Assembly: GCF_030013595.1 (NCBI RefSeq)
Contig: NZ_CP122768.1
Source of the DNA: Escherichia coli
GTDB taxonomy: Bacteria > Pseudomonadota > Gammaproteobacteria > Enterobacterales > Enterobacteriaceae
Length of the DNA stretch: 64,000 bases
Direction: 5' to 3' (one strand)
Below, one piece after another: positions 5,584 through 48,566 of this stretch. Made by a program: the position numbers and the translations under genes. Position 1 is the first letter of the stretch, and every line of letters starts with the position of its first letter. The notes under the pieces were generated by a model. It made no database searches, was not told where the DNA came from, and was given only the letters and a program-made list of their open reading frames with translations.

Positions 5584-8406
5584 ATGACGGCAAAGTACAT
5601 CAGGGACTGGCAACAACCGCGCCACGCAGTGGGGCGTGAAGGAACGGGGATCCCCGCTCCTGAATCCGCGCTTTCCTCCTGGCTGGATGCCTACCGGGCA
5701 GAGAACGAGCGCCGCCAGGAAATGGCTGATGCGGCGTTCTCCGCCACGCCGCTGGGCAACCTGATTAATAAAAGCCTGGACGCACAGGAAAAACAGGACA
5801 AAACCATCACACTGGCAGGAGACGCCAGAAAACAGGCACGCGGCGCGGTGGATGAAGCCATGGCCTCGCTGCGCCTGCTGCCGTCCTATCTGCGCGATCC
5901 GCTTATTCGCCACCTCTCCTTCCTGCGCAAAAAACAGGAAGCCGATCGTCAGAAAGGAAAAAACGCCAGGCAGGCAGAACGCTATGCGCGTGGGACCCTG
6001 CGCAAAATATTCGAACGTCTGGAGCGCACCGATCACCGCTGGCTGACACCGGGTTATCGCTCCCTTGCCGGACGCGAACGCCTGGACGATTTGCTTTACC
6101 TGCCGCAGCTCAACAAACACCAGATACAGACGCTGGCCACCATGACGGCGGCGATGTTCAGCAGCACCTTCGAAAAACTCTGCGATGGCTTTGGCGCGAC
6201 CGATGGCGAACTGACCATGGATGTAACGCTGAAGGCGTATCAGATGCTGGCCCGCATGGCGTTACACCTGCACATCATGCCTCCACATTATGACGCACTG
6301 ACAACAGACAAAGACCGGAGGAACGAACCGGACACGGAGCTGCTGCCGGGCGCAATCCTTCGCCTGACCTGTGCGGAATGGTGGAAACGCAAACTGTGGC
6401 TGTTACGTTGCGAGTGGCGGGAAGAACAACTCCGCGCCGCCTGTCTGGTTTCCAGAAAAACATCACCCTATCTGAGCCAGGACGCGTTAAGCGAGTTTCG
6501 CGCACACCGCGAGAAAACACGCGATTTCCTGAAAAGTTTCATGCTGGAAAATGAAGACGGGTTCACGATTGATCTCGAGACGGTGTATTACGCGGGAGTA
6601 AGTAACCCGGTTCACCGTAAGGCAGAAATGATGGCCACCATGAAGGGGCTGGAACTTCTGGCCGAAGCCCGTGGCGACAGAGCGGTGTTTCTGACTGTCA
6701 CCTGCCCGTCAAAATACCACGCAACAACGGAGAACGGTCATCCGAATCCCAAATGGAACGGGGCCACCATGCGCGACTCCAGCGATTACCTGGTTAACAC
6801 GTTTTTTGCGACGGTCCGCAAAAAACTGAACCGCGACGGTCTTCGCTGGTATGGCATCCGCACGGTGGAGCCTCACCATGACGGCACTGTGCACTGGCAT
6901 ATGATGGTCTTTGCACATCCGGACGAGATTGAAACCATCGTGTCCCACGTCTGCGATATTGCCATTCAGGAAGACCGCCACGAGCTGGGCGATGATATTA
7001 CTCCGCGTTTTAAAGCGGAGTACGTCGACGGCTCAAAAGGCACGCCAACCAGCTACATCGCCACCTACATCGGAAAGAACCTGGACAGCCGCGCCGTGGA
7101 TGGCATCGCCCCGAAAACGGGCAAGCCACGCGTTGACCACGAAACCGGAAAATCAATGGCCGAGAGCGTGGAGCGCGCCATCGGCTGGGCGCGCCTTCAC
7201 CGGGTCCGCCAGTTCCAGTTCTTTGGCATCCCCTCCCGTCAGGTGTGGCGTGAACTGCGCCGCCTTGCCAGCCAGATGGCACGCAACCCGGAAGGCCCGC
7301 AACGGCTGAAGGATGACGCAATGGATGCAGTGCTCGCTGCCGCTGATGCCGGGTGTTTTGCCTCCTACATTGAAAAACAGGGCGGCGTACTTGTTCCACG
7401 CCAGGACTACCTGATTCGCACCGCCTACGACCTCGCAGATGAGCTGAACGATTACGGCGAACAGAGCGTACAGATTTACGGGATCTGGTCACCACTCATC
7501 GGGGAGTCTTCCCGTGTGTGCACACATCCGGATAACTGGAAGCTGGTAAGACGTAAACCGGAAGCGGAAGACAGCGCCCGCGAAAATGGTTTTGACCTTC
7601 AGGGCGGCCCTGCCGCCCCTTGGACTCGTGGCAATAACTGTCCCCGTGTACAGGAAACGGACAACAACGGGACAGAACAGCCGGAAGAACGGCCAGCACC
7701 GTGGCCGCAGCTCCCTGACGGCGTTGAAGTGAACGAATGGATGCGCTCACTGAAACGGCACGAACGCCGGGCGCTGATGCGTTCGCTTCGTGACAAACAG
7801 GCAAAAAACAGCAGTGATGAAATGCAGAGCTGGACACAGAGCCGCAAACAGCAGCGGCCTTTGCCTGATAACCACGAATTACTCGCTAAAGAATGGCGGG
7901 AGTCTGCTGAATCTCTCGGCCTGCATATCGGTGAACAACAGATGCAGCACCTGTTACGGGGCGGCAGTCTGTACGTTGACGGCAGCATCATTGCACCGCA
8001 GGGATTTGAAATTGTACGCAAACCGGATACCCGCCCGGACAGCCGAATCACGCAGCTCTGGCAGCGCCTGAGCCGTAATCATGGCGTAAGCAGCACGGAG
8101 ATCCGCCATAACCCGGTCGCCAGCTATCTGGCACAGCTGGGGGCATCAGACCCTGAAGCCGCCGCACGCCTGGCATCCACACTTCAGCAGGACCAGAACA
8201 CCATGAAAACACCCGTTACCGTGCTTTCTGACATGCTGCGCGCCATCCGCGACGCAGAGCACGCACAGAGAATCAGTGAAACCACTGAACGCGCCAGCCG
8301 CAAAGCAGACCTGCTGCGGGGTGGCCTGACCAGTGGAAACAAAAAACAGACAGAAACGGGACTCACGAATCCCGCAAATGAGCAAAAAACGCGCAGCGAT
8401 ATATGA
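5584..8406 (+). CDS. A: Replication initiation endonuclease (P2 gpA family, rolling-circle)
   Basis: 940-aa ORF with the HUH-type region (GTVHWHMMVFAHPDE) and conserved P2 position between early genes and the Q/P packaging genes. Confidence 0.85.
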   Translation: MTAKYIRDWQQPRHAVGREGTGIPAPESALSSWLDAYRAENERRQEMADAAFSATPLGNLINKSLDAQEKQDKTITLAGDARKQARGAVDEAMASLRLLPSYLRDPLIRHLSFLRKKQEADRQKGKNARQAERYARGTLRKIFERLERTDHRWLTPGYRSLAGRERLDDLLYLPQLNKHQIQTLATMTAAMFSSTFEKLCDGFGATDGELTMDVTLKAYQMLARMALHLHIMPPHYDALTTDKDRRNEPDTELLPGAILRLTCAEWWKRKLWLLRCEWREEQLRAACLVSRKTSPYLSQDALSEFRAHREKTRDFLKSFMLENEDGFTIDLETVYYAGVSNPVHRKAEMMATMKGLELLAEARGDRAVFLTVTCPSKYHATTENGHPNPKWNGATMRDSSDYLVNTFFATVRKKLNRDGLRWYGIRTVEPHHDGTVHWHMMVFAHPDEIETIVSHVCDIAIQEDRHELGDDITPRFKAEYVDGSKGTPTSYIATYIGKNLDSRAVDGIAPKTGKPRVDHETGKSMAESVERAIGWARLHRVRQFQFFGIPSRQVWRELRRLASQMARNPEGPQRLKDDAMDAVLAAADAGCFASYIEKQGGVLVPRQDYLIRTAYDLADELNDYGEQSVQIYGIWSPLIGESSRVCTHPDNWKLVRRKPEAEDSARENGFDLQGGPAAPWTRGNNCPRVQETDNNGTEQPEERPAPWPQLPDGVEVNEWMRSLKRHERRALMRSLRDKQAKNSSDEMQSWTQSRKQQRPLPDNHELLAKEWRESAESLGLHIGEQQMQHLLRGGSLYVDGSIIAPQGFEIVRKPDTRPDSRITQLWQRLSRNHGVSSTEIRHNPVASYLAQLGASDPEAAARLASTLQQDQNTMKTPVTVLSDMLRAIRDAEHAQRISETTERASRKADLLRGGLTSGNKKQTETGLTNPANEQKTRSDI

Positions 8407-8451
8407 AGCGCGCACAAAACAGGCAAAAACGGGATTTCAGAATCCCGTAAA
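8354..8451. repeat. Two copies of a roughly 25-bp palindromic motif (AAACGGGA-N6-GAATCCCG-AAA) upstream of parM; candidate centromere/operator
   Basis: Copies at about 8354-8378 and 8427-8451, each an inverted repeat CGGGA...TCCCG; copy 1 overlaps the 3' end of A. Confidence 0.45.
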
Positions 8452-8482
8452 CGATTAATTAATCAACATAAGGAAAAGCGAC

Positions 8483-9442
8483 ATGAAAATTTGTATCGAC
8501 GACGGCTCCACCAACATCAAGCTGGCATGGACTGAGAACGGCGAACGCCGCAACGCCATCAGCCCGAACAGCTTCAAGTCGGAATGGTCTGCGCCGTTCG
8601 GCGGCACGCAGCCCGCGAACTACATGCTTGATGGCGTGCGCTATGGTTTTGATCCGGTCAGCGATCGCTTTGTCCAGACGACCGACACGCAATACCAGTA
8701 CAGCGATGTAAATGTCATTGCCATTCATCACGCGCTGGTCAAATCAGGCATCACGCCACAGGAGGTGGATGTGGTTGTCACCCTGCCACTGAGCGAGTAT
8801 TTCGACACAAACGCACAGCCGGACATGGCCAACATCAACCGCAAAAAAGCGAACGTTATGCGCCCGGTGGAGTACCAGAACGGCGAAGCATTCACTATCC
8901 GTAACGTGCGGGTTATGCCTGAATCCATTCCGGCTGGCTTTAAAGCACTGGCTGACATGAGTCCGTTTGAATCCCTGCTGATTGTGGATTTAGGTGGAAC
9001 CACGCTGGATGTGGCAAAGGTTCAGGGACAACTGGCAGGTATCAGCCAGGTGTTTTGCGATCCACACGTAGGCGTTTCCCTGATGGCCGATGCAGTACTG
9101 TCGGTGATGGCCACTAACGGTATGCGTACCAGTCACCACATCGCCAATACCATTATCGAACATCGCCATGATGAAGCCTGGCTGCGCCAGCACATCCACA
9201 ATGACGCGCATTACGCCAGCCTGATGGCGGTTATTCGTGAAAAGGAAGAAACACTGAAACAACGCGTGATCCGCGCGCTGGCGGGTTTTTCGGGTTACGG
9301 GCGGGTGATGGTTGTCGGTGGCGGGGCGGAGATTGTGGCACCCGCTATCCGCGAAGCCTGCGGAGTTAATGCGACTTTCATCGCGGACGGGGTGCCACAG
9401 TTTGCTCTGGTTAATGGGCTGTACGCAATGGACAAGGAGTAA
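8483..9442 (+). CDS. parM: ParM/StbA-like actin-family partition ATPase
   Basis: Residue-level similarity along the whole length to plasmid R1 ParM as I remember it (IDDGSTNIKL, YSDVNV...HHAL, VMPESIPAG, LI.DLGGTTLD, GGGAE, LVNG). Confidence 0.85.
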   Translation: MKICIDDGSTNIKLAWTENGERRNAISPNSFKSEWSAPFGGTQPANYMLDGVRYGFDPVSDRFVQTTDTQYQYSDVNVIAIHHALVKSGITPQEVDVVVTLPLSEYFDTNAQPDMANINRKKANVMRPVEYQNGEAFTIRNVRVMPESIPAGFKALADMSPFESLLIVDLGGTTLDVAKVQGQLAGISQVFCDPHVGVSLMADAVLSVMATNGMRTSHHIANTIIEHRHDEAWLRQHIHNDAHYASLMAVIREKEETLKQRVIRALAGFSGYGRVMVVGGGAEIVAPAIREACGVNATFIADGVPQFALVNGLYAMDKE

Positions 9443-9446
9443 ACCA

Positions 9447-9758
9447 ATGACGACACCAACCAGACGGATAAGTTTCTATCTGAAGCCCGCCGCCGTCAAG
9501 AACGAAGGCGAAGCATGCGCCTGGCTGGACAGCCTTACACCAGAAGCCCGCAAAAGCGGCCAACGTGTGGCTTTTCTGGCCGGGCTGGCACTTCTGAAAA
9601 TGAATCCGGCAGAGGCTTACCGACTGGCTGCATGGGCTGACGATGAGGCGTTATCAGTGACACAAACCAGGACAGAACGCCCCGCGTCACAGCCAGTACC
9701 AACCACACAGATAACCAGTCGGATGGCCGGAAATATCAGGGCGTTATTTCCCGAATAA
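9447..9758 (+). CDS. parR: ParR/StbB-like centromere-binding protein
   Basis: Starts 4 bp after parM; resembles R1 ParR from memory (FYLKP, AALTAGLAL-type helix, RALFPE C-terminus). Confidence 0.6.
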   Translation: MTTPTRRISFYLKPAAVKNEGEACAWLDSLTPEARKSGQRVAFLAGLALLKMNPAEAYRLAAWADDEALSVTQTRTERPASQPVPTTQITSRMAGNIRALFPE

Positions 9759-9821
9759 CACAACATCAGGGCGCATCCGCCCTGATGACTTTAATCCGGG
9801 AACATAAACAAGGGGGACACA

Positions 9822-10154
9822 ATGCAACACATTGACAGAGAAAAAGCGCAGCGACTGATTGAGCGGATGGAAGCGCTGGCGAAAGAAGAAAATGTCAACA
9901 TCCAAAAAATAGCTGAATGTGGCCAGATAGTTCTTCGTCGTGAAAAAGACCTCAAACAACTGATGTCTGGCGAAACCAGCAAAACATGGACTTCAGGCGA
10001 GGAGACGATTTATTGCAGCTTCTGCAATAAATCTCAGTACGAAGTCACAAAGGTGATTGCCGGACCGTCTGTTTACATCTGCAATGAGTGCGTGGATTTG
10101 TGCAATGAAATTATCAGGAGAGAAGTGACAGACAAAAAGGGAAAAAACGCATGA
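9822..10154 (+). CDS. Small protein with a C-terminal ClpX-type C4 zinc-binding domain
   Basis: [39 protein letters not shown] closely parallels the ClpX N-terminal zinc-binding domain ([40 protein letters not shown]); no AAA+ module follows. Confidence 0.7.
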
Positions 10155-10498: not shown

Positions 10499-10527
10499 AA
10501 AACGCCCTCTTCCAGGGCGTTTATTTC
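10499..10527 (+). terminator. Rho-independent terminator after the accessory genes
   Basis: GC stem AACGCCCT/AGGGCGTT followed by a T-rich tract. Confidence 0.55.
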
Positions 10528-10980
10528 AATGCACAATAGTGCACAAATTTGCACAATTTTTTTGAACGAATTTTTGCCCTTCCGGCCCGCGTGACAGTTG
10601 GATCCGTCAAGGATCCGTGCGTGCACAAAAAAACGCGCTTTTTCTGCGCGCAGGTGACGGGGGAACAGCCCGCGTTTCAGGGGGTAAATAGCATTCCCTG
10701 AACGATGTCGCAGAGATACAACAGAATGGCTGTATTTCTCACGCTGAGCGTGAAAAAGATGTGAGGGCTTTTGATTTGATGGGGTGAAAGGTAAGGCCGT
10801 CAAAATCGCACTGAGGCGGCGAGAACATACAGTCAACGCGGTAGGATTGCGTAAGAGTCTGACCGTCGATGGTGGCGATAAACTGGAAGGCGTCGTGAAA
10901 TTATCTGATTGATACAGGAGCTGGAGAGTCGGGGCATAAATTTTTTATGCCCCGGCGAAGCAGCAGACAAGCGAAGCGCG

Positions 10981-19839: not shown

Positions 19840-20417
19840 GCGCAGAACTCATGCGACTGCTGAGCAATATCATCCGCACCGGGATCATCTCTGAAGTTGA
19901 TGAGAAGTCCTGGCGCGTGCGCGTTCGCAGCGGCGAACTGGAAACAGGCTGGTTGCGCTGGAACACCACGCGCGCGGGAGCCTTCAATGTATGGCTGCCG
20001 CCATCACCAGGCGAACAGGTGGTAATTGCCTGCATTGGCGGCAACCCGGAAACCGCCATGATAATTGGCAGCCTGTGGAGTGATGCCAGTCCGGCCCCCG
20101 GCAAAAGCCTGAAAGAAATCGTGGTCAGCGCGCCGGATGGCGCGGCGTTCCGCTACGACGCAGACGCTGGCGCACTGAGCGCCAGCGGCATGAAAACAGC
20201 CACCCTGCAGGCATCCGTCAGCGTGACACTGGATACGCCCGTCGTGGAATGCACAAACCTTCTGAGAACAGCGACGCTTGACGTCACAAAAGGGGGAAAG
20301 ATGAGCGGCAATATCACGCACAGCGGCGGCGATTTCACCTCAAACGGCATCACAGTGCATACGCATAAGCACGGTGGCGTTAAAGGTGGCAGCGATTCGA
20401 CAGGAGGCCCGCAGTGA
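19836..20417 (+). CDS. V: Baseplate spike/assembly protein (P2 gpV)
   Basis: 193 aa with the conserved GG/HTH..HGG C-terminus of gpV-type spikes. Confidence 0.85.
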   Translation: MSAELMRLLSNIIRTGIISEVDEKSWRVRVRSGELETGWLRWNTTRAGAFNVWLPPSPGEQVVIACIGGNPETAMIIGSLWSDASPAPGKSLKEIVVSAPDGAAFRYDADAGALSASGMKTATLQASVSVTLDTPVVECTNLLRTATLDVTKGGKMSGNITHSGGDFTSNGITVHTHKHGGVKGGSDSTGGPQ

Positions 20418-25886: not shown

Positions 25887-28703
25887 TCAATCTTTATCGT
25901 AAAAACTGCCACGTCCGGCACGGGCGCGCCGTTCCATCTCTGCCCTGACCATTTCACCGACCAGTTTCGCCAGTTCGCGGGGATTCTGCGTAACAACGTT
26001 ATGCAGATGAACATGAATTTCACCGCCAAACCCGGAGGCAACAGGCTCCCGGTTACGGAAAGTTGCAGGAACTGATGCCACTGGAGAGCGTATGGCCTCC
26101 GCCACCGGGCGGGAGCTGGCCGCAACAACAGGGACCAGCGCCGGAGGCAGCGGAGCCGGGACCACGGGTGTGATATTAATTGCGGGGGCAGGCTTACTGA
26201 CCTGCGCAATCTTCCGCTCCTGCCACTCCCCACGAACAGCAAGTGCGCGGGGCAGGTTCTTAAAGACAATATCGCCGGGGCCAATGCGTTTTTTCGTCTC
26301 ATCAACCAGCTTACCTGTGTTATCAGCAATTTTGCTGAGTCTGCGTAGCGTACCGGTATTGCTGTCTGTGAGCGGTTTGTTGTCTTTGGGCTTATCACCT
26401 CCGGTGCCATTGCCATTTTCCACAGGCTTCGGCGGATTGATTTTCGCCAGGTCCCCCTGAAGCAAGGCAACCTTGTCCTGAAGAATGGCCGCACGCTGTG
26501 CGTCTTCGATTTTCTTGCGCGCCCTTTCCGCTTCATCCGGAAGCACACCGAGCTTTTCAAGTATCCACGCCAGCGTATCCAGCAACATTTTTGCAGGTGT
26601 CAGAACAAGTTGTAACGCACCGCCAAGAACGTTACCGAATATCTCGCCAGCACTGGTACATTTATCCAGCGTTTCCTTGCTGGACTCCATCGGTGACAGC
26701 AGCGATTTAAACCAGTTAAACACCTGGCTGATCCCGCTTCCGATTGCGTCAAAAACAGGACCAAACCGTTCAAAGGTTTCGCGCAACGGGGTCAGCCTTT
26801 CCATAATCCCGCTGAACACTCCGGCAAAAAATGCCCTGATGGGATCCCAGTATTTCCAGATAAGAACGGCAGCTCCGGCAAGCGCAGCCACAATAAGACC
26901 AACCGGACTGAACAACGCCCCGATAGCGCCTCCCAGTAAAGAAACAGAACCCGTCACCATTCCCCACAGCGCAGGCAACACCCTGACGACATTCATTGAC
27001 CGGGTCAGGATGTCAAAACCAAGACGCAGGGTGGCCAGCTTCCCGTAAAGCACCCCAATAACCAGCGACAACGAGCCAATCGTTGCAGTCATTGCCAGCA
27101 ACGCACCGCCTGCTATCAGTAGCTGGCGCGTCAGTACCGGATGGGCCTGCGCCAGCGAGGTGATTTTTTCAAGCACCCGCGTGAACCACTGCGTGACAAA
27201 ACGCAGCGGACCGTCAACCAGATCACTGATGCGAATACGAAGACCTTCCCATGCGCTGTCGAGATTTTTCAGGTCCCCATCAAGATTATCGGCCATTACT
27301 TTTGCAACGCGATCGGCCTCTCCCCTTGCCCCCTGCAATTCTCTGGTCAGTTTTTGCAGCTCTCCTGAACCAGCCGCCGCAACAAGCGTCTGCAAACCAA
27401 CGAACGCCTCTTCTCCGGCGATGTCCTTGAAGAAGGAGACCTGGTCCACCTGTCCGTATTTTTGTGTCGCCTTATAGAGATCAAGCAGCACATCCTCCAT
27501 CGGGCGCATTTTGCCTCTGGCGTCAGCAACTGACACCCCAAGCTCTTTCAGCGCATCAGCCGCAGCTTTTGGCGGTGATGCAAGGCGGGACAGACTTGCG
27601 CGCATGGCCGTACCAGCATCGCTTCCACGAAGACCATTATTGGCAAGCATCCCGGCCATGGCTGCCGCTTCTTCAAGACTGATACCAAGTTTTGCGGCAA
27701 CCGGACCGGTATACTTCATGGTTTCGCCCAGCGCGCGTAAATCAGTATTGGTCCGGGTGAATGCCGCTGTCAGCGTATCGCCAACCCGGTCCATTTGATC
27801 GGCTGTCAGGTTGAACTGTGTGAGGATATTGGAGCCTATATCAGCCGTCTCGCCGAGTTCGACGCCACCTGCCAGCGCCATATTAAGAACACCGGGCAAT
27901 GCGGCCTGAATGGCCTGCGGAGTAAAACCAGCCATTGCCAGAAAGCTCTGCCCACTGGCGGCATCACTCGCAGTAAACTGTGTTTCAGAGCCAAGTTTTA
28001 ACGCCTGCTCACGCAGCGCCTTAAACTGCGGGCTGTTTTTGTCGATTCGCGTCAGTGCCTGAACGCGGGACATCTCTTTGCCGAACCCGATCGCAGGCTG
28101 CAAAAAACGCCCGGCAGCATAGCCGCCCGCCGCTGCCGCACCAATTGCCAGCGCACCACCTGTTTTCAGTTTTCCCGCTGTTTCCTGCGCGCGCGAATAC
28201 CGCTCACGCGCCCGCGTTACACGCGCAAGCGCCTGCCGTTCGCGTTCAAGCTGGTTGTTGTACTGTTCGGTGCGTCTGATGGCCTGCTGGATGGTGTTAT
28301 CGCTGCCTGTCAGGGAAATGCCGTGGCGTTTCAGCTCTCCGCCAAGCTCCCGCATTTTCTGAATTTCCCGTGTGCGCGATTCATTCAGGCGTTCAAGCCG
28401 GGTGCTTAACTGCTGCATCAGCTTTTGTTGTTTTTCGCTGAGCACTGTACCCGTGCGTTGTAACTGATTAAGGGCGTTAAGCTGGCGTCGTGCTTTCAAT
28501 ATGCCAGCATCCGCTTTACTGACAGCGTCACGGGCGCGCTCAAATGAACGCGCCTGACGCTCGAGATTTTTGATCGCCCCCTGCGTTCGCTGGATGGAGT
28601 CACCAAGCTGCCCCATCAGGCGGCGGGCGTTTTCGGCAGGCCGGGTCAACCTGTCAACGGCGCTGAAAGCGACCCGGATATCAAGAGTCTTCATTATCTG
28701 CAT
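25887..28703 (-). CDS. T: Tail tape measure protein (P2 gpT)
   Basis: 938-aa protein, helical with a central hydrophobic glycine-rich segment; between E and U. Confidence 0.85.
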   Translation of the reverse strand: MQIMKTLDIRVAFSAVDRLTRPAENARRLMGQLGDSIQRTQGAIKNLERQARSFERARDAVSKADAGILKARRQLNALNQLQRTGTVLSEKQQKLMQQLSTRLERLNESRTREIQKMRELGGELKRHGISLTGSDNTIQQAIRRTEQYNNQLERERQALARVTRARERYSRAQETAGKLKTGGALAIGAAAAGGYAAGRFLQPAIGFGKEMSRVQALTRIDKNSPQFKALREQALKLGSETQFTASDAASGQSFLAMAGFTPQAIQAALPGVLNMALAGGVELGETADIGSNILTQFNLTADQMDRVGDTLTAAFTRTNTDLRALGETMKYTGPVAAKLGISLEEAAAMAGMLANNGLRGSDAGTAMRASLSRLASPPKAAADALKELGVSVADARGKMRPMEDVLLDLYKATQKYGQVDQVSFFKDIAGEEAFVGLQTLVAAAGSGELQKLTRELQGARGEADRVAKVMADNLDGDLKNLDSAWEGLRIRISDLVDGPLRFVTQWFTRVLEKITSLAQAHPVLTRQLLIAGGALLAMTATIGSLSLVIGVLYGKLATLRLGFDILTRSMNVVRVLPALWGMVTGSVSLLGGAIGALFSPVGLIVAALAGAAVLIWKYWDPIRAFFAGVFSGIMERLTPLRETFERFGPVFDAIGSGISQVFNWFKSLLSPMESSKETLDKCTSAGEIFGNVLGGALQLVLTPAKMLLDTLAWILEKLGVLPDEAERARKKIEDAQRAAILQDKVALLQGDLAKINPPKPVENGNGTGGDKPKDNKPLTDSNTGTLRRLSKIADNTGKLVDETKKRIGPGDIVFKNLPRALAVRGEWQERKIAQVSKPAPAINITPVVPAPLPPALVPVVAASSRPVAEAIRSPVASVPATFRNREPVASGFGGEIHVHLHNVVTQNPRELAKLVGEMVRAEMERRARAGRGSFYDKD

Positions 28704-47637: not shown

Positions 47638-48566
47638 ATCAGCTTTCCTTATACGGATTAATTTTATTGTGCAGTGTGTTGAACGACGCCCACACCACGT
47701 CGTTATACAATTCAATAACTGGCTCAATTATTTTCACGATAAACCAGACCAGTAATAGCGGGGATATCGGTATCATCAACACGATAAATATAATGAGAAA
47801 CAAAAATTCTGTCGCTCTACTTTTTCTCGGATATTCTTTTCTGAATAATGTAGTCATTTCTTACCGCCCTTTCGGGCGGCCTCCTGACATTAATCATTGT
47901 GATAACTCATAGTTTCATTTGCAGCATCAACTGGATCAACATCCCACCAGCAATAATTTTGGTCGAGTCCTTCAGGTGTCCACGGCTCTAATTCATTTTT
48001 TACCGCATTCTCGTCACCAGTAATTTTAAAAATCTGCTCAGAAAATTTCCTCACCCACTCGTTATATTTTTCCGCATTAATGGTTTTCTGTGTATTTAAC
48101 ATAGATATGCCTCCAGTTAAGGATTTGATTTTATTTACAGTGCTAAATTTAATTATTCAGTTCTGGATTTTGTCGCCCTGCGTATCCGCGCTTTCGCGTT
48201 ACGCTCAATCTGAATTAACTTTTCTATATTTTTCCGTCTTTCCTGTTCCTCCTGGCGCAATAGCCTTACATCATCTGCCAGTCTGGTTTCTCTTTTCGCC
48301 ACAGAGAGCATCCAGTCAAACGGCTCCACAACTGCACCGCAGATTTTACAGCGGACCTGACGCTCTTTTTCGTCAACCCGAACAGAGGCGTGATGACAAT
48401 ATGCTCTTTCCGATGGCTCATAAAGAAAATTAACCTGATTACGTGGGTCATCCTCTTTTACCGGAAATAAAACGATATTGCTTAACTCATCTTCTGGTTT
48501 TATTTCCATGCTCTTCTCCTTTGATGTGAATGCCAGCGGTAATTGAAGCCTGATAGCTAATTTCAT

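Follow-up and report, generated by a model that had tools for sequence, protein, structure and literature searches.

The window analysed here is a stretch of 64,000 nucleotides of Escherichia coli DNA (contig NZ_CP122768.1 of RefSeq assembly GCF_030013595.1), and the subject of this work is its gpA gene (5584..8406, plus strand), which encodes the rolling-circle replication initiator of a prophage related to phage P88, a member of Xuanwuvirus in the Peduoviridae, i.e. the P2 family. We consider it probable that gpA is a P88-type initiator of the HUH class in which the replication origin divides a conserved core from a separately evolving tail, and that the unusual length of the protein is the result of accretion at the edge of a cargo hotspot. 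According to this scheme the core would nick the origin in cis, as in P2, and the tail would be a non-catalytic, weakly constrained appendage, present as translation simply runs on past the origin. The lineage-specific end of the tail would have grown at the left edge of the hotspot located between gpA and gpQ, and it would now read into the parC-like centromere of the adjacent parMR cassette.

Identity and length of gpA

The open reading frame (ORF) starts with ATG, codes for 940 residues and is present as it had been listed. Its product and the P88 replication endonuclease are 99.0% identical across the full length, and the assignment to gpA is also based on Pfam PF05840 and on PHROG 6857 and 91. 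An earlier note, made from the sequence of the window, had called the protein long for its family, and the comparison with the reference lengths bears this out, as P2 A has 761 residues, 186 A has 694 and Fels-2 gpA has 809. The excess of 179 residues over P2 A consists of 119 residues located after a conserved NNC motif (residues 684-686) and 60 residues before it, i.e. about two thirds of the extra length is found in the C-terminal tail.

The DNA of this tail was found in 1,370 of 5,426 complete E. coli genomes (~25%), and 1,531 of its 1,533 copies are chromosomal. The neighbours of gpA are the same as in P88: an ORF of 121 residues precedes the gene, which is followed by parM, parR and a ClpX-zinc-finger ORF. 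Compared with P88 gpA (YP_009113059.1; PHROG 6857), we are dealing with the same protein with essentially no difference, i.e. with the gpA that had been catalogued before for a widespread type of prophage. As a gene it is routine, being deposited in databases as the P88 'replication endonuclease', and the value of the present analysis lies in its anatomy. The gpA tail and the partition genes are not discussed in the paper on P88 (PMC5285337).

Another explanation of the length would be that the long ORF is an artefact, in which gpA became fused to a downstream gene by a frameshift, an assembly error or the decay of the prophage. Gene callers do sometimes predict small proteins from an internal start, M873 (P0122, P0126, P0134), and gpA is broken in some relatives (phage 520873, L046, L047). 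However, the same continuous frame of 940 residues is present in P88 and 13 further phage records, in protein clusters of 707, 203, 16,881 and 3,025 members, and, at a coverage of at least 80%, in 1,356 complete E. coli genomes. The ratio of nonsynonymous to synonymous substitution rates (dN/dS) is below 1 in the gpA frame, and a relative from Hafnia keeps an open tail of 236 codons in spite of about 50% nucleotide divergence. In addition, the tail does not resemble the ORFs that lie downstream of gpA in relatives, and ORFs in alternative frames of the tail have no match to a PHROG family. The artefact explanation is therefore extremely improbable, and the ORF of 940 residues is real. The origin of the tail by fusion with a downstream ORF was rejected as blastp and tblastn searches against the post-gpA ORFs of L006, L007, L009, L010, P2 and Fels-2 came back empty, and a separate product of 68 residues starting at M873 was discarded because this methionine is not conserved in the Hafnia relative.

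The catalytic core

The Phage_GPA (HUH-type) catalytic domain comprises residues 179-503 (6118..7092, plus strand). The match to PF05840 covers the whole profile of 321 positions with 431.1 bits against a cutoff of 31.4 (E-value 3.1e-129), and the invariant columns of the family are present. The HUH motif itself, EPHHDGTVHWH, is at residues 429-439 (6868-6900, plus strand), and within it H431, H432, D433, G434, T435, H437, W438 and H439 are invariant in the 17 sequences aligned. A pair of tyrosines, Y491 and Y495, in the sequence YIATYIGKN (7054-7068, plus strand) is likewise invariant, and by alignment the two residues are the counterparts of Y450 and Y454 of P2, the tyrosine pair that has a catalytic role in that protein. 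Conservation across the family extends as far as the NNC motif, about 72% along the protein, in agreement with the earlier placement of a conserved core in the first part of gpA.

The AlphaFold model of the full-length protein gives the core a predicted local distance difference test score (pLDDT) of 85-94. When the core was compared with the Protein Data Bank (PDB) by Foldseek, the top matches were HUH domains (the AAV2 Rep68 OBD and a Helitron transposase), although the similarity was weak (E = 0.05-0.15), and a phmmer search of the PDB gave no sequence match of gpA to any solved structure.

Position of the origin within gpA

The earlier note stated that P2 A has roughly 760 residues and carries the origin in the 3' part of its gene. 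The P2 record agrees with this, as it gives 761 residues and an annotated nick at NC_001895:29892, about codon 620; the annotated ori of 186, at 28576, also lies within gene A. The nick sequence of P2, GCGCCTCG/GAGTCCTGTCAATAACTG (the slash marks the nick), aligns to GCCCCTTG/GACTCGTGGCAATAACTG at 7615-7641 of the window. From this we infer that the nick falls at 7622/7623, within the W680 codon of the segment AAPWTRGNNC. This is upstream of the tail and corresponds to the relative position of the origin in P2 and 186.

The putative nick lies in an ori core, CGCCCCTTGGACTCGTGGCAATAACTGTCCCC (7614..7645, plus strand), that was delimited by alignment to the P2 nick and the 186 ori. Part of this core, CAATAACTGT (7632-7641), is invariant across 18 distinct ori sequences, and the whole block of 32 nucleotides is identical to that of Fels-2 even though the core proteins are only ~50% identical. 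A GC-rich hairpin, GGGCGGC-CCT-GCCGCCC (7602..7618, plus strand), was predicted by DNA folding and ends 4 nucleotides 5' of the inferred nick; equivalent hairpins are predicted in P2, 186 and Fels-2. A perfect stem of at least 5 base pairs is found at the hairpin position in 14 of the 18 unique ori sequences, as opposed to 4.8% of shuffled ones, and the stems vary by lineage in a compensatory manner (GGGCGGC/GCCGCCC versus GGGCGAC/GTCGCCC). The DNA that holds the origin codes for a linker, residues 660-706 (7561..7701, plus strand), that is predicted to be disordered; pLDDT is below 50 for these residues in the full-length model and for residues 1-18 of the tail in a model of the tail. Such disorder fits a conservation that is imposed by the DNA and not by the protein.

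Judging from these alignments and folds, the origin sits at the boundary between core and tail, as it does in P2 and 186, and not in the extension. The position 7622/7623, after a conserved hairpin, can be taken as the expected origin position for a very common prophage family.

The opposite view is that the extension houses the origin, as the earlier note had suggested as one option, or some essential accessory origin DNA. It draws on the location of the P2 origin in the 3' part of A, on the fact that the tail-coding DNA starts only ~20 nucleotides past the inferred nick, and on an inverted repeat (7638-7649 / 7664-7675) just downstream of the nick. The nick motif and the hairpin, however, occupy 7602-7641, ~330 nucleotides upstream of the lineage-specific part (from 7972), and the tail DNA of the window and of the Hafnia relative is 38-66% identical, versus 97.8% for the ori block. 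Moreover, the hybrids described below swap everything from +12/+13 between cores that are ~50% identical, which places the core-specific determinants outside the tail DNA. We consider this view very improbable, since the counterpart of the nick (7615-7641) is upstream of the tail.

A second exact copy of CAATAACTG is present outside gpA, at 47713; ~0.24 matches per strand are expected in 64 kb, and this copy was taken as a chance occurrence.

Anatomy of the tail

The tail that follows the NNC motif consists of residues 687-940 (254 residues; 7642..8403, plus strand). The length of the post-NNC part ranges from 76 to 271 residues in ~90 loci: 186 and the Salmonella short types have 76-77 residues, most Fels-2-like proteins 113-123, P2 has 135 and the P88 type, whose tails are the longest, 229-271.

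The description of the tail as charged and of low complexity, given in the earlier note, did not hold. Charged residues make up 28.4% of the last 250 residues as compared to 28.3% of residues 1-690, the Shannon entropy is 4.00 versus 4.15 bits, no SEG-like low-entropy windows were found in the tail, and AlphaFold gives helices and a small alpha/beta domain. The claimed richness in Arg, Glu and Gln is correct as far as the total is concerned (26.4% versus 20.1%), but most of the surplus is Gln and it is concentrated at residues 687-796. In the AlphaFold model helices and strands are found across residues 716-916, and pLDDT is below 50 only at 687-706, 737-757 and 914-940.

Residues ~716-833 (7729..8082, plus strand) form a family-wide C-terminal region that aligns with the Fels-2, P2 and Salmonella short-type tails. 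It begins with a basic helix at 716-740, EWMRSLKRHERRAL...RLR, and contains a small predicted alpha/beta domain at 764-833 with two helices and three strands (...LLRGG...W826; pLDDT 72-88). When 15 tails were aligned (A5), G779 proved invariant and W826 almost invariant, and residues 687 to ~833 align with other gpA tails. On this basis residues ~716-833 are a diverged counterpart of the C-terminal region found in every gpA examined.

The following residues, 834-918 (8083..8337, plus strand), were delimited by alignment and AlphaFold as a lineage-specific helical extension with a long predicted helix (881-916) and the motif VTxLSDMLxAxRDxEH. The last 22 codons and the stop codon (8338..8406, plus strand) overlap the first repeat unit of a parC-like site and are not conserved as protein. 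The lineage-specific portion of gpA amounts to about 85-105 residues, and the suggestion that the last ~250 residues constitute an extension is valid for residues ~834-918 but not for 687 to ~833, which are common to other gpA tails.

That the extension is not shared by all gpA proteins is also evident from database searches, since tblastn detected residues 797-940 in only 14 of the 384 phage records that carry gpA. When 1.84 billion representative proteins were searched exhaustively with HMMER for the same residues, 16 representative clusters were hit, and these were fragments or relatives of gpA or repeat noise. Residues 797-865 are 36-41% identical to the tails of L009 and L010, both of which are without parM, and residues 866-918 are confined to the P88 type and the Hafnia relative. 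For the tail, no fold match in the PDB was found by Foldseek at E <0.001, phmmer against the PDB gave nothing, NCBIfam gave no match, and a word-indexed homologue search returned only fragments.

It is useful to compare these features with those of P2 A and 186 A. Firstly, the Phage_GPA domain, the HUH motif and the two-tyrosine motif are found at equivalent positions. Secondly, the ORF of each contains, at the NNC motif, the sequence of the nick site with a GC hairpin in front of it. Thirdly, a poorly conserved C-terminal tail follows the origin in all three. On the other hand, the overall identity is 32-33%, the tail has 254 residues as opposed to 135 (P2) and 77 (186), there are ~60 additional residues before the NNC motif, and residues ~834-940 are without counterpart in P2 or 186.

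Exchange of tails at the ori block

Natural hybrids, which were revealed by an alignment (A3), join cores and tails from different lineages. Their junctions are given here relative to AATAACTG, on which scale the inferred nick is at -11/-10. In P0102/L005 a Fels-2/186-type early region and core are joined to the tail of the gpA studied here (98.7% tail identity), with parM and parR following, and the switch of parent took place between -20 and +13. P0064/L006-L007 (830 residues) and P0047/L009 (879 residues) have the core studied here, other tails and no parM; L006, L007 and L009 are identical to the window until +11/+12 and divergent from there. Since natural hybrids swap tails at the ori block, origin specificity does not reside in the tail DNA.

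In order to compare junctions, the 300 nucleotides on either side of the origin were clustered at 90% identity in 87 loci. At the ori junction 16 left and 25 right clusters occurred in 31 combinations and formed one cycle, as opposed to 15-21 combinations without any cycle at five control junctions within the core. In its evolution the tail is a module separate from the core, and gpA is not a uniform flank of the P2 cargo hotspot, as its C-terminus varies with the cargo and the tail is exchangeable at the origin.

A second mosaic junction is located near residue ~180 of gpA: residues 1-178 (5584-6117) are 51-53% identical to PhiR44_2 and Chuche, whereas the remainder is 97-99% identical, and the junction test at offset -1600 was also somewhat reticulate.

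We also put forward a linked pair of ideas, which is rather doubtful at present: the gpA origin would be a nick-promoted crossover point for ori-to-cos exchange, and obligatory translation past the origin would underlie cis-action. The exchange may proceed by breakage of the fork at the nick or by gpA-catalysed strand transfer between two origins, and the ori-to-cos segment exchanged between P2-like phages may consist of the gpA tail and the cargo. As to cis-action, unfinished translation of the tail may keep the folded core on its own template. At least 76 codons follow the nick in every one of the ~90 loci, with little constraint on their sequence and great variation in their number. If true, origin-promoted exchange would be a mechanism for rapid cargo swapping at the gpA-gpQ hotspot and it would help to explain the fast movement of defence and maintenance cassettes between P2-like phages. 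The P2 cos sequence was not found in the window at up to 3 mismatches.

The cargo hotspot between gpA and gpQ

In P2-like phages the gpA-gpQ (tin/old) interval has been described as a hotspot for cargo, and about a quarter of these phages were noted to have a putative plasmid-partition system (Rousset et al. 2022, PMC9122126). This proportion fits the presence of the tail in 25% of complete E. coli genomes. According to a 2026 preprint (10.64898/2026.02.27.708500) the recombination processes at these hotspots are still to be elucidated. The locus studied here resembles the published hotspot in that parMR and alternative cargo are found between gpA and the portal gene. In contrast to the treatment of gpA as a fixed flank in PMC9122126, part of gpA changes here together with the cargo.

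The change is seen in nine IMG/VR loci in which the tail is 95-96% identical in nucleotide sequence up to 8290, 8306 or 8320 and is then followed by other genes. Each group of alternative cargo has its own gpA C-terminus, and in one locus (L023) parM is lost after codon 18. On its left side the exchange is bounded within gpA itself, either at 8290-8320 (the last ~30-40 codons) or at codon ~680 in the ori block. Among complete E. coli genomes, the junction of tail, parC and parM is kept in 1,286 of the 1,370 tail-bearing genomes (94%), and about 6% are without it.

The idea that the tail is an adaptor strictly linked to ParMR fitted at first, as the tail and a ParM of 95-100% identity were found in exactly the same 14 phage records and three contexts agreed. 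It was rejected because the same tail is found beside other cargo in IMG/VR, with parM deleted in one locus, and because ~6% of the tail-bearing E. coli genomes are without the junction.

The alternative cargo modules may be defence systems. In L033 and L034 the tail is followed by a D12-methyltransferase-like ORF of 281 residues and an AAA-like ORF of 565 residues, in L036, L038, L045 and L046 by a pair of 373 and 741 residues, and in L037 and L039 by three minus-strand ORFs of 269, 114 and 487 residues. The cargo of L023 consists of two minus-strand ORFs (135 and 118 residues), one with a Fic-like sequence. On the other side of the window's cargo, at 10523-10593, a block of 64-79 nucleotides (gcacaatagtgcacaaatttgcacaattttttt...) is 87-97% conserved in most of the cargo variants compared, and seems to flank the hotspot on its right-hand side.

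The partition cassette and its parC-like repeats

Downstream of gpA the window carries parM (8483..9442, plus strand), coding for an actin-like partition ATPase of 319 residues (Pfam StbA_N PF06406 and the ParM C-terminal domain PF21523), and a gene for a parR-like adaptor of 103 residues (9447..9758, plus strand; Plasmid_stab_B PF10784, PHROG 2515 and the annotation of P88). Two directly repeated units of 42 nucleotides precede parM. Unit 1 (8340..8381) lies inside gpA and consists of an A-rich iteron and the palindrome CGGGACTCACGAATCCCG (8357-8374), so that the statement of the earlier note that the 3' end of gpA overlaps the first of two palindromes upstream of parM is accurate. Unit 2 (8413..8454), with the palindrome CGGGATTTCAGAATCCCG (8430-8447), is intergenic and is located 29 nucleotides upstream of the start of parM. 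The units are 79% identical and the two palindromes are 73 base pairs apart. With the palindrome pattern 4 strand-matches were obtained where 0.57 would be expected, and 4 matches were not reached in any of 100 shuffled sequences.

Both units and the spacing of 73 base pairs are kept in the Hafnia locus, with 80% nucleotide identity at unit 1 (78-80% for the two units); the tail DNA is 38-66% identical and the DNA flanking unit 1 38-60%. A repeat spaced by 73 base pairs is also present upstream of parM on an IncL/M plasmid. The arms of the palindromes are invariant and their centres vary without covariation, a pattern that suits protein binding sites, and we propose from arrangement and conservation that the two units bind ParR. 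The locus is an example of a replication gene whose coding sequence contains a repeat of a putative partition site.

On the minus strand the palindromes (8356-8375 and 8429-8448) precede T-rich runs and score as sites similar to intrinsic terminators; they could also stop antisense transcription that enters gpA from the par side. A consensus scan of 7500-9900 found no sigma-70 promoter for parM.

The arrangement is like that of type II ParMRC loci such as parMRC of plasmid R1, with parM followed by a parR-like gene and repeated sites immediately upstream. The parC site of R1 is an array of ten 11-base-pair iterons, whereas the site found here has two units of 42 nucleotides, each with an iteron and a palindrome. 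Further differences from plasmid ParMRC systems are that ParM is at most 52% identical, that one repeat unit lies inside the coding sequence of another gene, and that the P88-type element is integrated in 1,531 of the 1,533 E. coli copies. The closest plasmid ParMs, at ~52% identity, have different upstream regions. Arrival of the tail together with plasmid par DNA was rejected, as a tblastn search of 72,556 plasmids with residues 797-940 hit only six P88-like elements.

A further parMR association was seen in L049, which has another gpA lineage (core identity 58%, tail of 185 residues) and, directly downstream, a 58%-identical parM and a parR-like gene. Its repeats, at 6650-6815 of that locus, lie upstream of parM and include the shared iteron ACAGGCAAAAACGGGA, and gpA stops before them. 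The association of par with the 3' end of gpA in L049 looks like an independent or an ancient one.

Selection on the tail and a possible role of the extension

Comparisons within the P88 group show that purifying selection acts on the gpA frame of the tail (dN/dS 0.05-0.33). For residues 834-918 the ratio is 0.06-0.67, and for the last 22 codons it is 0.77-1.05. These codons show four different frames or ends in Chuche, L005, L040 and the Hafnia relative, which are caused by 1-nucleotide insertions or deletions in an A-run at ~8339-8345, while the underlying DNA stays conserved. The last 22 codons are an unselected read-through into the first repeat of the parC-like site.

In the comparison with the Hafnia relative no other segment of the region evolves as fast as the tail, which has an amino acid identity of 39-52% versus 67-80% for the gpA core, 74% for ParR and 94.6% for ParM; the dN values are 0.43-0.60 for the tail, 0.21 for the core and 0.026 for parM. 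A recent transfer of parM relative to gpA was also considered (dS 0.65 versus 1.26) and dropped, as the difference is too small to claim.

The main alternative to a weakly constrained appendage is that residues ~834-918 are a dedicated protein-protein interaction module, which would bring host factors of replication (Rep or DnaB helicase, or the clamp) or ParM/ParR of the phage itself to the origin once it is nicked. An added interaction domain had been the other option of the earlier note. We regard this as unlikely, but not negligible. The purifying selection on the tail speaks for it, as do the long predicted helix and the VTxLSDMLxAxRDxEH motif, which is shared with the Hafnia relative with 3 synonymous differences and so is conserved at the protein level. 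The adjacent parMR in 94% of the E. coli copies and in all 14 phage-database copies would also agree with a module of this kind. Nevertheless, at least 9 IMG/VR loci and ~6% of the tail-bearing E. coli genomes have the tail, 95-96% identical up to 8290-8320, next to unrelated cargo and no parMR, i.e. ParMR is not an obligatory partner. In addition, the extension is the least constrained segment of the region and has no detectable relatives in sequence or fold, and P2 and 186, with tails of 76-135 residues, are known to replicate without it.

Several points weigh against the picture of an origin-bounded, accreted tail that we prefer. The extension is under purifying selection and its motif survives in the Hafnia relative amid diverging residues, and a specific role, e.g. 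as a partner-binding helix, is possible. The AlphaFold confidence for residues 834-918 is only 50-68 and the alignments are shallow (15-17 sequences). The putative nick is placed by homology, and the binding of ParR to the repeat units is proposed from their arrangement and conservation, while both palindromes also score as terminator-like sites on the minus strand. The excess of reticulation at the ori junction is clear when sequences are clustered at 90% identity but is not evident at 95%. Finally, several junction intervals of Fels-2-like loci lie 40-190 nucleotides upstream of the nick, which makes homologous recombination on the conserved block the simplest mechanism of exchange.

Additional observations

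An ORF of 110 residues with a ClpX-type C4 zinc finger follows parR (9822-10154). A near-identical copy is present in L009 without parMR, hence the ORF belongs to a module different from the par cassette.

Within the region expected to contain the late genes of the prophage, ARAGORN called a putative tRNA-Leu(CAG) on the minus strand (20123-20212).

Some P88-like genomes have a disrupted gpA: in phage 520873 (L013) it is split into 3 coding sequences, in L046 a frameshift occurs at about residue 820, and in L047 there is an internal deletion (~7706-7838). These may be defective prophages or sequencing errors. There is also a circular record of 34,461 base pairs, NZ_CP148288.1 (L097), deposited as an E. 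coli 'plasmid', in which the entire genome of a P88-like phage is found, including integrase, gpA, parM and parR, and it may represent an episomal or excised form.

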